Shown in pieces: positions 18,775 through 21,700 of a stretch of DNA of 64,000 nt. Positions within the stretch are counted from its first letter, which is position 1; every line of letters starts with the position of its first letter. The DNA is taken from the NCBI RefSeq assembly GCF_029227855.1, contig NZ_CP074356.1; one strand, 5' to 3'. Made by a program: the position numbers. Source of the stretch: Escherichia coli. Lineage in GTDB: Bacteria > Pseudomonadota > Gammaproteobacteria > Enterobacterales > Enterobacteriaceae.

Positions 18775-21700
18775 TAGGCTGCCCAGGCCGTTCCGACTCT
18801 ATAAGGACACGACAATGACGATTTTTGATAATTATGAAGTGTGGTTTGTAATTGGCAGCCAGCATCTGTATGGCCCGGAAACCCTGCGTCAGGTCACCCA
18901 ACATGCCGAGCACGTCGTTAATGCGCTGAATACGGAAGCGAAACTGCCCTGCAAACTGGTGCTGAAACCGCTGGGCACCACGCCGGATGAAATCACCGCT
19001 ATTTGCCGTGACGCGAATTACGACGATCGTTGCGCCGGCCTGGTAGTGTGGCTACACACTTTCTCCCCGGCCAAAATGTGGATCAACGGCCTGACCATGC
19101 TCAACAAACCGTTGCTGCAATTCCACACCCAGTTCAACGCGGCGCTGCCGTGGGATAGCATCGATATGGACTTTATGAACCTGAACCAGACTGCACATGG
19201 CGGTCGCGAGTTCGGCTTCATTGGCGCGCGTATGCGTCAGCAACATGCCGTGGTTACCGGTCACTGGCAGGATAAACAAGCCCATGAGCGTATCGGCTCC
19301 TGGATGCGTCAGGCGGTATCTAAACAGGATACCCGTCATCTGAAAGTCTGCCGTTTTGGCGATAACATGCGTGAAGTAGCGGTCACCGATGGTGATAAAG
19401 TTGCCGCACAGATCAAGTTCGGTTTCTCCGTCAATACCTGGGCGGTTGGCGATCTGGTGCAGGTGGTGAACTCCATCAGCGATGGCGATGTTAACGCGCT
19501 GGTCGATGAGTATGAAAGCAGCTACACCATGACGCCTGCCACACAAATCCACGGCGAAAAACGCCAGAACGTGCTGGAAGCGGCGCGTATTGAGCTGGGG
19601 ATGAAGCGTTTCCTGGAACAAGGTGGCTTCCACGCGTTCACCACCACCTTTGAAGATTTGCACGGTCTGAAACAGCTTCCTGGTCTGGCCGTACAGCGTC
19701 TGATGCAGCAGGGTTACGGCTTTGCGGGCGAAGGCGACTGGAAAACTGCCGCCCTGCTTCGCATCATGAAGGTGATGTCAACCGGTCTGCAGGGCGGCAC
19801 CTCCTTTATGGAGGACTACACCTATCACTTCGAGAAAGGTAATGATCTGGTGCTCGGCTCCCATATGCTGGAAGTCTGTCCGTCGATCGCTGTGGAAGAG
19901 AAACCGATCCTCGACGTTCAGCACCTCGGTATTGGCGGTAAAGAAGATCCTGCCCGCCTGATCTTCAATACCCAAACCGGCCCAGCCATTGTCGCCAGCT
20001 TGATTGATCTCGGCGATCGTTACCGTCTGCTGGTTAACTGCATCGACACAGTGAAAACACCGCACTCCCTGCCGAAACTGCCGGTGGCGAATGCGCTGTG
20101 GAAAGCGCAACCGGATCTGCCAACTGCTTCCGAAGCGTGGATCCTCGCTGGTGGCGCGCACCATACCGTTTTCAGCCATGTGCTGAACCTCAACGATATG
20201 CGCCAGTTCGCCGAGATGCACGACATTGAAATCACGGTGATTGATAACGACACCCGCCTGCCAGCGTTTAAAGACGCGCTGCGCTGGAACGAAGTGTATT
20301 ACGGGTTTCGTCGCTAAGTAGCCGCATCAGGTGTGTAACGCCTGATGCGACGCTGACGCGTCTTATCAGGCCTACACGCTGTGATTTTGTAGGCCGGATA
20401 AGCAAAGCGCATCCGGCATTGTTTTCCCCCTCGCCCCTTTGGGGAGAGGGCCGGGGTGAGGGGAAACGACCTCTCAGGAGTCAACATGTTAGAAGATCTC
20501 AAACGCCAGGTATTAGAAGCCAATTTGGCGCTGCCAAAACATAACCTGGTCACGCTCACATGGGGCAATGTCAGCGCCGTTGATCGCGAGCGCGGCGTCT
20601 TGGTGATCAAACCTTCCGGCGTCGATTACAACGTCATGACCGCTGACGATATGGTCGTGGTCAGCATCGAAACCGGTGAAGTGGTTGAAGGAACGAAAAA
20701 GCCCTCCTCCGACACGCCAACTCACCGGCTGCTCTATCAGGCATTCCCGTCCATTGGCGGCATTGTACATACGCACTCCCGCCACGCTACCATCTGGGCG
20801 CAGGCGGGCCAGTCCATCCCGGCGACTGGCACCACCCACGCCGACTATTTCTACGGCACCATTCCCTGCACCCGCAAAATGACCGACGCAGAAATCAACG
20901 GTGAATATGAGTGGGAAACCGGTAACGTCATCGTCGAAACCTTCGAAAAACAGGGTATCGACGCAGCACAAATGCCCGGCGTCCTGGTCCATTCTCACGG
21001 CCCATTTGCATGGGGCAAAAATGCCGAAGATGCAGTGCATAACGCCATCGTGCTGGAAGAGGTCGCTTATATGGGGATATTCTGCCGTCAGTTAGCGCCG
21101 CAGTTACCGGATATGCAGCAAACGCTGCTGGATAAACACTATCTGCGTAAGCATGGTGCGAAGGCATATTACGGGCAGTAATGACTGTATAAAACCACAG
21201 CCAATCAAACGAAACCAGGCTATAATCAAGCCTGGTTTTTTGTGCACAGAAAACCCCCAGCTAGGCTGGGGGTTCCGGAAAGCTTTCAGCTTTAAGCCAG
21301 TTATTAAAACCCCTTTTGATTTGTTAAAACACCTTGCGGTCTGGCAACTGCAAGTGTCAAACAAGAAATCAAAAGGGGGTCCCAATGGGGAACGAAAAGA
21401 GCTTAGCGCACACCCGATGGAACTGTAAATATCACATAGTTTTTGCGCCAAAATACCGAAGACAGGTGTTCTACAGAGAGAAGCGTAGAGCAATAGGCAG
21501 TATTTTGAGAAAGCTGTGTGAGTGGAAAAGTGTACGGATTCTGGAAGCTGAATGCTGTGCAGATCATATCCATATGCTTGTGGAGATCCCGCCCAAAATG
21601 AGCGTATCCGGCTTTATGGGATATCTGAAAGGGAAAAGCAGTCTGATGCTTTACGAGCAGTTTGGTGATTTGAAATTCAAATACAGGAACAGGGAGTTCT

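Follow-up and report, generated by a model that had tools for sequence, protein, structure and literature searches.

Why do both copies of one insertion sequence (IS), lying on opposite strands of the same stretch of Escherichia coli DNA, begin directly behind a hairpin and a run of T residues? The stretch, 64,000 nucleotides (nt) of contig NZ_CP074356.1 (RefSeq assembly GCF_029227855.1; below, the window is this whole stretch), carries the element IS200C once between leuD and sgrS/sgrT (copy 1, minus strand) and once between araD and polB (copy 2, plus strand). An earlier reading of the sequence alone (the sequence-only reading) had proposed that IS200C inserts as single-stranded DNA and targets hairpin-plus-T-tract sites, that is, intrinsic terminators. 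Here we show that the association with such sites is real and far beyond chance, that the sequence part of the target is TTNTT, and that the hairpin lies at a restricted distance upstream. We consider it likely that the pattern arises because the element inserts as a single strand 3' of TTNTT under the direction of a guide, at a position set by the upstream DNA hairpin.

Results

Both copies of IS200C are inserted precisely behind a host hairpin

IS200C is an ordinary, known IS200-group member of the IS200/IS605 family. The two copies align over 717 ungapped nt with 99% identity; tnpA is the sole open reading frame (ORF) of the element, with no tnpB, and its product matches NCBIfam NF033573 (147.7 bits, cutoff 55) and Pfam Y1_Tnp PF01797 (4e-38). 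The IS200 antisense-RNA family STnc490 of Rfam is found in both copies. Each starts with G followed by TGCACAGAAAA and the left-end hairpin. Subterminal hairpins are present at both ends, and as AAAAA precedes the right-end hairpin, a run of A lies 5' of both; no terminal inverted repeats were reported. No group II intron was matched by Rfam over positions 7000-23000, and the only ORF is that of Y1_Tnp. The insertion of copy 1 is shared by 13 complete genomes, CFT073 among them, and that of copy 2 is found in 1 of 5426 complete E. coli genomes; positions 20900-22300 of the window are 100% identical to the chromosome of E. coli JNEC-KY178 (NZ_AP045174.1).

That both copies stand directly 3' of a hairpin and six T residues, as first noticed, is borne out by the sequence and by folding of single-stranded DNA, in which both host hairpins and both IS hairpins are far more stable than shuffled controls (z = -6.3 for the hairpin region at copy 2, where the hairpin is unchanged in IS-free strains). 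The full-length SgrS model of Rfam covers 8581-8807 (228 bits), with its 3' end at 8581. Coordinates are collected in Table 1.

Table 1. Features of the two IS200C insertions and their targets (positions in the window).
Feature	Position	Strand	Remarks
IS200C copy 1	7871-8581	-	711 nt; tnpA at 7980-8438
Host hairpin of copy 1, sgrS terminator, GCCAGCAG-tgattat-CTGCTGGC	8588-8610 (arms 8610-8603/8595-8588)	-	Target of copy 1
Host T6, sgrS terminator	8582-8587	-	IS joined 3' of 8582 (reading the minus strand), 6 nt from hairpin foot
Extra T, right junction of copy 1	7870	-	Absent from CFT073 and every empty site seen
IS200C copy 2	21242-21952	+	711 nt; starts GTGCACAG, ends GGATATTTATT
Host hairpin of copy 2, CCAGGC-tataatcaa-GCCTGG	21215-21235 (arms 21215-21220/21230-21235)	+	3' of araD, in polB leader; target of copy 2
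Host T6 of copy 2	21236-21241	+	TTNTT target at 21237-21241; IS joined 3' of 21241, 6 nt from hairpin foot
tnpA of copy 2	21385-21843	+	ORF, 152-amino-acid Y1 HUH transposase; RefSeq name IS200C family transposase
Left-end AAAA, presumed guide	21250-21253	+	5' of left-end hairpin
Left-end hairpin CCCCCAGC-tag-GCTGGGGG	21254-21272	+	From folding
Right-end hairpin CCTCCGGC-tat-GCCGGAGG	21925-21943	+	From folding
Right end, hairpin and 9-nt spacer ATATTTATT ending TTATT	21925-21952	+	Constant right junction

Comparison with IS-free strains fixes the boundaries. The empty araD-polB site reads gcctggTTTTTT|ATTGG in the allele that matches the window (locus L001; in longer form gcctggTTTTTT|ATTGGATTTT) and TTTTTTGATGG in a second allele; the empty emrB-luxS site, the locus of a metagenome copy, reads ctggcTTTTTT|CAATT in LF82 (longer, ctggcTTTTTT|CAATTAATTG) and fits the 711-nt model exactly; and the empty sgrS-leuD site reads ctggcTTTTTT|CTTTTTGG, with T6 followed by CTTTTT. 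The filled sgrS-leuD site of CFT073 has the exact junction ...ATTTATT|CTTTTTGG. At all of these sites (araD-polB, emrB-luxS, and sgrS-leuD via CFT073) filled and empty forms differ by a precise insert of 711 nt with no target-site duplication, as the sequence-only reading had it. That reading had placed the junction at TTTTTTG, and its position behind hairpin and T6 was right; because IS-free strains have no G after T6, however, the G is the first base of the IS and not the last base of the terminator. Among the fetched IS200C loci, empty sites were few and partial only.

Taken alone, copy 1 would represent an insert of 712 nt. This was set aside, as the junction is exact in CFT073, where the insertion is the same, and a search for an empty sgrS-leuD site with T7 gave none. 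The extra T is thus specific to the strain or to its assembly, and reflects either later slippage or an assembly error. JNEC-KY178 has a second extra T after ...ATTTATT, in the middle of a tandem pair of IS200C copies between galU and hns (locus L243, position 952), and CFT073 and YDC107 are exact at the places that match its two extra-T junctions. Slippage, insertion one base further along or an assembly error may have produced the two extra Ts.

The sequence part of the target is TTNTT

Further copies were collected by searching for exact matches to the 19 nt that follow the G; 33 viral-contig and 120 metagenome loci were returned. With the window copies included, the distinct left flanks numbered 103, of which two were removed as chance matches, leaving 101 flanks that represent 92 independent sites. 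Loci L076 and L139, which lack TTG and had appeared to be exceptions, are chance 19-mer matches and not IS copies. T occupies positions -1 and -2 before the G in 101/101 flanks, position -5 in 100/101 and position -4 in 93/101, while position -3 is free (T 64, A 21, G 10 and C 6). The right junction is constant in 36/36 full copies, with ...GGAGGATATTTATT followed by variable sequence, so that the IS terminates in TTATT. The sequence part of the target is therefore T-T-N-T-T, of the same form as the terminus of the right end. A full T-tract is not required, since hairpins followed by ACTGATT, CATTATT or TTGATT are among the targets used.

One apparent counter-example, at yfbU (locus L132, a metagenome contig), was rejected because its two flanks are contiguous in no complete genome. 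Its left flank comes from one terminator, and its right flank begins exactly after the T-run of the yfbV terminator, upstream of yfbU (compare locus L236), which suggests an IS-mediated chimera formed by recombination between two IS200 copies, with an inversion or translocation as the result.

A hairpin lies at a restricted distance upstream of the junction

A strict rule, under which a GC-footed hairpin must lie within 14 nt of the junction, was applied to the flanks and to control TTNTT sites in the same loci (2.6 Mb). Of the 101 flanks, 94 (93%) have such a hairpin, its foot 5-11 nt upstream of the junction, and the remaining 7 have bulged or AT-rich stems. The corresponding rate was 6.8% for all control sites, 12.1% for those free of ORFs and 14.5% for ORF-free sites with a longer T-run (binomial P < 1e-69). 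The target hairpins are mutually unrelated in sequence across the 92 sites; as they all differ, and exist in empty sites, the possibility that the terminator is carried by the IS itself was rejected.

The distance from the hairpin foot was resolved with 36 reconstructed empty sites, by relating the use of TTNTT positions to their availability. At 6, 7, 8 and 9 nt, 52%, 56%, 50% and 40% of the available positions are used, against 17% at 5 nt, 20% at 10 nt and none at 11 nt or more. Because of this window of 6-9 nt the IS is often found in the middle of a long T-run and not at its end. The proposal that IS200C targets hairpins followed by T-tracts is thus supported as far as terminators are concerned, with the qualification that TTNTT at a set distance, rather than a complete T-tract or the end of the run, marks the point of insertion.

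In architecture, with a GC hairpin followed by a T-rich tract, the target sites appear to be intrinsic (Rho-independent) terminators, a minority of them with weak T-tracts. They include sites at the 3' end of a transcription unit behind sgrS, araD, emrB, yfbV, galU and ydcL, the araD hairpin lying also in the polB leader, and in every case the top strand of the IS corresponds to the non-template strand of the unit that is terminated. The target hairpins do not differ from those of unoccupied terminators in stem length, GC content or strength, so that any ordinary terminator seems to qualify. The checks that had been suggested at the outset, on the left flanks of other copies and on empty sites, therefore both came out as expected: the 92 independent sites share an architecture (hairpin, T-rich spacer, TT, IS) with no relationship in sequence, and the junction lies where it was predicted at araD-polB, emrB-luxS and, via CFT073, sgrS.

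The right end of the IS is itself a target

With a GC hairpin and 9 nt ending in TTATT, the right end of IS200C should itself qualify as a target. The predicted head-to-tail junction of right end and left end (RE|LE) is present in 76/5426 complete E. coli genomes. Two such loci were checked, and each has two full copies head-to-tail behind a host terminator: the tandem between ydcL and ydcO in YDC107 (L244) has an exact RE|LE junction, and that between galU and hns in JNEC-KY178 has the junction with one extra T, as described above. The terminator-like right end of the IS is thus also a target.

Relatives in several phyla show the same junction

When one genome per species was scanned with the protein as guide, 80 loci were returned whose TnpA is 66-94% identical to the query, in hosts that include Vibrio, Edwardsiella, Erwinia, Budvicia, Sutterella, Oscillospiraceae, Colibacter, Lactimicrobium and Faecalibacillus. 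The same junction occurs in Proteobacteria, Clostridia and Negativicutes: a host hairpin, a T-rich tract, TT|G T..., (N)AAAA and the left-end hairpin, the last two being kept with compensatory changes in the stem. The junction was recognisable at 62 loci: at 47 of these the strict hairpin rule is satisfied, at 6 the hairpin is imperfect and at 9 the contig ends at the junction. Among named relatives, IS1541 is 87-88% identical to IS200C at the DNA level; IS1541A on Yersinia pestis pFra follows GGCCACTA-tatt-TAGTGGCC TTTTTT. IS200S of Clostridium perfringens follows an imperfect hairpin and TTGTT, and its right end consists of a hairpin and ATTTTTATT. IS1541 has also been described between pheL and pheA in Yersinia (PMC3082878), a position behind the attenuator. 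The hairpin-TTNTT junction is therefore a property of the whole IS200 group across phyla.

IS200C prefers the lagging-strand template

Replication strand was assigned indirectly, from the composition of the flanks (Chi sites, FtsK orienting polar sequences (KOPS) and GC skew). For the plus strand of the window these gave Chi 4:14, KOPS 0:3 and a GC skew of -0.0225, from which the minus strand is taken to be the leading-strand sequence, that is, the lagging-strand template; copy 1 is in the orientation preferred below. Over 86 sites (772 kb of flanks), the top strand of the IS has a GC skew of +0.028, Chi 69:32 and KOPS 50:18. By the majority of Chi and KOPS it is the lagging-strand template in 41/49 decidable loci (about 84%), compared with 38:32 (54%) for unoccupied terminators of the same loci (Fisher p = 8e-4); when the sign of the skew is used instead, the split is 64:22 for the IS and 58:46 for unoccupied terminators (p = 0.0096). 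The expected strand bias is thus present, which supports the single-strand insertion attributed to the element by the sequence-only reading, and favours the replication fork as the origin of the single-stranded target. A bias towards the lagging-strand template is known for IS608 and ISDra2 (PMC5027513).

Other features of the window

A LexA-box-like sequence, CTGTATAAAACCACAG, lies at 21185-21200, upstream of copy 2; we take it to be the polB/dinA SOS box. The GTG start of polB is at 21967, 14 nt from the right end of copy 2. Between polB and the control region upstream of it there are thus 711 nt of inserted DNA, including a hairpin that has been described as a terminator. Within the right-end hairpin of the IS, an in-frame ATG (21934) would add 11 codons to PolB.

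In this lineage there is no setA between sgrS/sgrT and leuD (7836-8587); sgrT and leuD are contiguous in 2146 complete genomes, and about 3240 match on the sgrS side only, as in K-12. Direct repeats D1-D3 (72-81% identity), at 10763-11408 and 28467-29304, correspond to the paralogous type III secretion system effector genes espY2 and espY1 with their upstream regions, and a transposase fragment annotated as frameshifted and incomplete (28272-28450) adjoins espY1. Two copies of a motif built on TTTCAATATTG...CAATATTGAAA, arranged both directly and as inverted repeats, are present at 45416-45530 in the divergent fixA-caiT control region, where they may be regulator binding sites.

Discussion

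A model for target selection

According to the model that we favour, IS200C would move as single-stranded DNA and recognise a composite target, in which TTNTT follows the foot of a GC-rich DNA hairpin at some 6-9 nt on its 3' side, on an exposed lagging-strand template. As intrinsic terminators are the main genomic supply of this motif, the IS ends up directly behind terminators and co-oriented with the terminated gene, and the terminator is left intact. The sequence part is most likely read by an A-rich guide, on the paradigm of IS608 and ISDra2 (PMC6006769, PMC5027513): the AAAA 5' of the left-end hairpin would serve as guide for TTNTT, and the AAAAA 5' of the right-end hairpin as guide for TTATT. 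The hairpin is most likely the positional determinant, and would be recognised by TnpA. The free position -3 would parallel a non-canonical position that the guide-target interaction of IS608, in work by Barabas from 2008, reportedly contains.

A terminator followed by TTNTT looks like a surrogate right end, and the left junction created by insertion would then resemble the junction of RE and LE in the circular intermediate. We suggest tentatively, with slightly more doubt than confidence, that IS200 transposases read the terminator hairpin in just this way, the host hairpin with 6-9 nt and TTNTT standing in for the element's own hairpin with 9 nt and TTATT, and that this form of structure-plus-sequence targeting is conserved from Enterobacteria to Clostridia. 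A simpler role for the hairpin would be that, once folded, it keeps the T-rich stretch accessible on a template coated with single-stranded DNA-binding protein, or that it stalls the fork.

Other accounts of the association

The copies examined are all survivors, and selection or differential excision could therefore contribute to what we see. If IS200C inserted at any TTNTT or T-rich site, only copies behind terminators might persist, where they disrupt nothing and are shielded from read-through that would raise transposase levels. Copies inside genes would mostly be purged, and a recent preprint, in which terminator-like sequences are found upstream of and outside 40.2% of IS200-family copies, interprets them as limiting transposase expression (10.1101/2025.07.22.666184). 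Nonetheless, an adjacent hairpin accompanies only 12-15% of ORF-free TTNTT sites against 93% at the IS, and a terminator 30-100 nt upstream would shield the element equally well, yet the hairpin foot is 5-11 nt away and the usage window spans 6-9 nt. Harmful places that offer the motif, such as the polB leader and pheL-pheA, are hit as well; singleton and presumably recent insertions, such as the araD copy, obey the rule; and the exact junction recurs across phyla. Survivorship is for these reasons an improbable explanation.

We judge it quite improbable that the target is instead the non-template T-tract in the bubble of an RNA polymerase that is pausing or terminating, with the RNA hairpin and not the DNA hairpin as the element that matters. 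Such coupling to transcription would account for the invariable identity of the IS top strand with the non-template strand of the terminated unit, and an insertion point 6-9 nt after the stem is, by textbook accounts, where intrinsic termination occurs; in addition, insertions of IS608 are reported to be enriched in rrn genes, which are transcribed at high levels (PMC5027513). However, the replication-strand bias of 84%, compared with 54% at unoccupied terminators, points to the replication fork, and poor U-tracts (ACTGATT, CATTATT, TTGATT) that would be expected to make weak terminators are also used. Finally, it is very improbable that TTNTT suffices for insertion and that the host hairpin then prevents the element from leaving again, perhaps because the left cleavage site is harder to recognise beside it, so that copies accumulate at terminators. 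In favour of such a sink, the donor strand does lose the element in peel-and-paste transposition, copies of IS200 are known for being static (PMC4513863), and an association near 100% among resident copies would be expected from it too. But no transient copies lacking a hairpin are seen among the 101 flanks, many of them singletons, and a choice made during insertion accounts more simply for both the 6-9 nt window and the use of the right end.

Several observations weigh against insertion guided by TTNTT and hairpin, or against the mimicry of a right end in particular. In the model of IS608 integration both hairpin-binding sites of the TnpA dimer are filled by the element's own ends, and integration is not stimulated by flanking double-stranded DNA (PMC5027513), so that recognition of a target hairpin is without precedent. 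The mimicry is inexact, because target spacers peak at 6-7 nt and the right-end spacer is 9 nt. An in-cis A-tract guide 5' of the target hairpins, the counterpart of the AAAAA at the right end, was looked for and is not supported (2.64 A in 5 nt, against 2.70 at unoccupied terminators; p = 0.57). Copy 2 in the window is on the non-preferred strand, the leading-strand template. As target and IS both end in TT, the exact cleavage positions are ambiguous by 2 nt. Lastly, IS1541C on a Yersinia enterocolitica plasmid (NZ_CP009366.1; L241) has the left junction ...GATTTTTA|TGCACAG, with A for G and no clear hairpin upstream, and is the only real exception to the junction rule that we have seen.

Relation to known systems

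IS200C is a known element, and its target rule extends the IS200/IS605 paradigm. With IS608 and ISDra2 it shares a Y1 HUH TnpA, subterminal hairpins, the lack of inverted repeats and of target duplication, insertion 3' of 4-5 nt that are related to the terminus of the right end (TTAC and TTGAT in those two, TTNTT in IS200C), a tetranucleotide resembling a guide on the 5' side of the left-end hairpin and the bias towards the lagging-strand template. The targets of IS608 and ISDra2 are, however, set by sequence alone, whereas nearly all IS200C copies have a host hairpin 6-9 nt upstream; the IS200 group also differs in having no tnpB and in a left cleavage site only about 12 nt from the left-end hairpin. 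The archetypes of the group, Salmonella IS200 and Yersinia IS1541, are of the same kind as IS200C, with the same ends, the same art200/STnc490 region and no structural difference.

The closest functional analogue is provided by the class C (IIC) group II introns, which insert just after the stem-loops of intrinsic terminators or attC sites, using a hairpin and a very short sequence in single-stranded DNA (PMC7923331). These are retroelements with a ribozyme and a reverse transcriptase that rely on RNA-DNA pairing, none of which IS200C possesses; the resemblance is functional only, a convergent use of the safe harbour behind terminators. The RAYT (TnpA-REP) proteins, by contrast, are relatives with a Y1 HUH domain whose substrates are hairpins in the genome, and some IS elements land in repetitive extragenic palindromes (REP). 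Yet IS200C TnpA scores 32.2 bits against REP_Tyr_transpos (cutoff 80), and the hairpins that flank it are terminators unrelated in sequence and not members of a REP family.

The internal left-end hairpin of IS200 has been described as a terminator, in an account that gives no host-terminator target rule (PMC4513863). The preprint cited above reports terminator-like sequences upstream of ISs, most strongly for IS200/IS605, with 40.21% of 20,314 IS200-family copies having one upstream and outside (supplementary table of 10.1101/2025.07.22.666184). In the literature consulted, which lacked several older key papers, we found no statement of a rule that joins TTNTT to a hairpin, of the window of distances or of the right end as an equivalent of the target, so that a prior description is possible.

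Implications for the IS200 group

For annotation, the rule means that predicted terminators abutting IS200 belong to the host and that the IS proper begins with the G that follows the T-run. The enrichment of upstream terminators that the preprint describes at family level can also be read mechanistically in its light. Potentially costly insertions exist, as copy 2 ends 14 nt upstream of the polB start and IS1541 lies at pheL-pheA (PMC3082878), and such hits, on attenuators and leader hairpins, are predictable from the rule, as are tandem IS arrays and IS-mediated rearrangements. If a hairpin at a fixed distance is required, it adds a structural co-determinant to the sequence-only target model of IS608 and ISDra2. 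That dozens of copies of IS200, IS1541 and their relatives can be tolerated finds a simple explanation in the rule: they lie behind terminators that remain intact, and are insulated from read-through. Should terminators indeed be read as surrogate right ends, they would constitute a universal safe harbour, which could help to explain the persistence of a nearly immobile IS in many copies.

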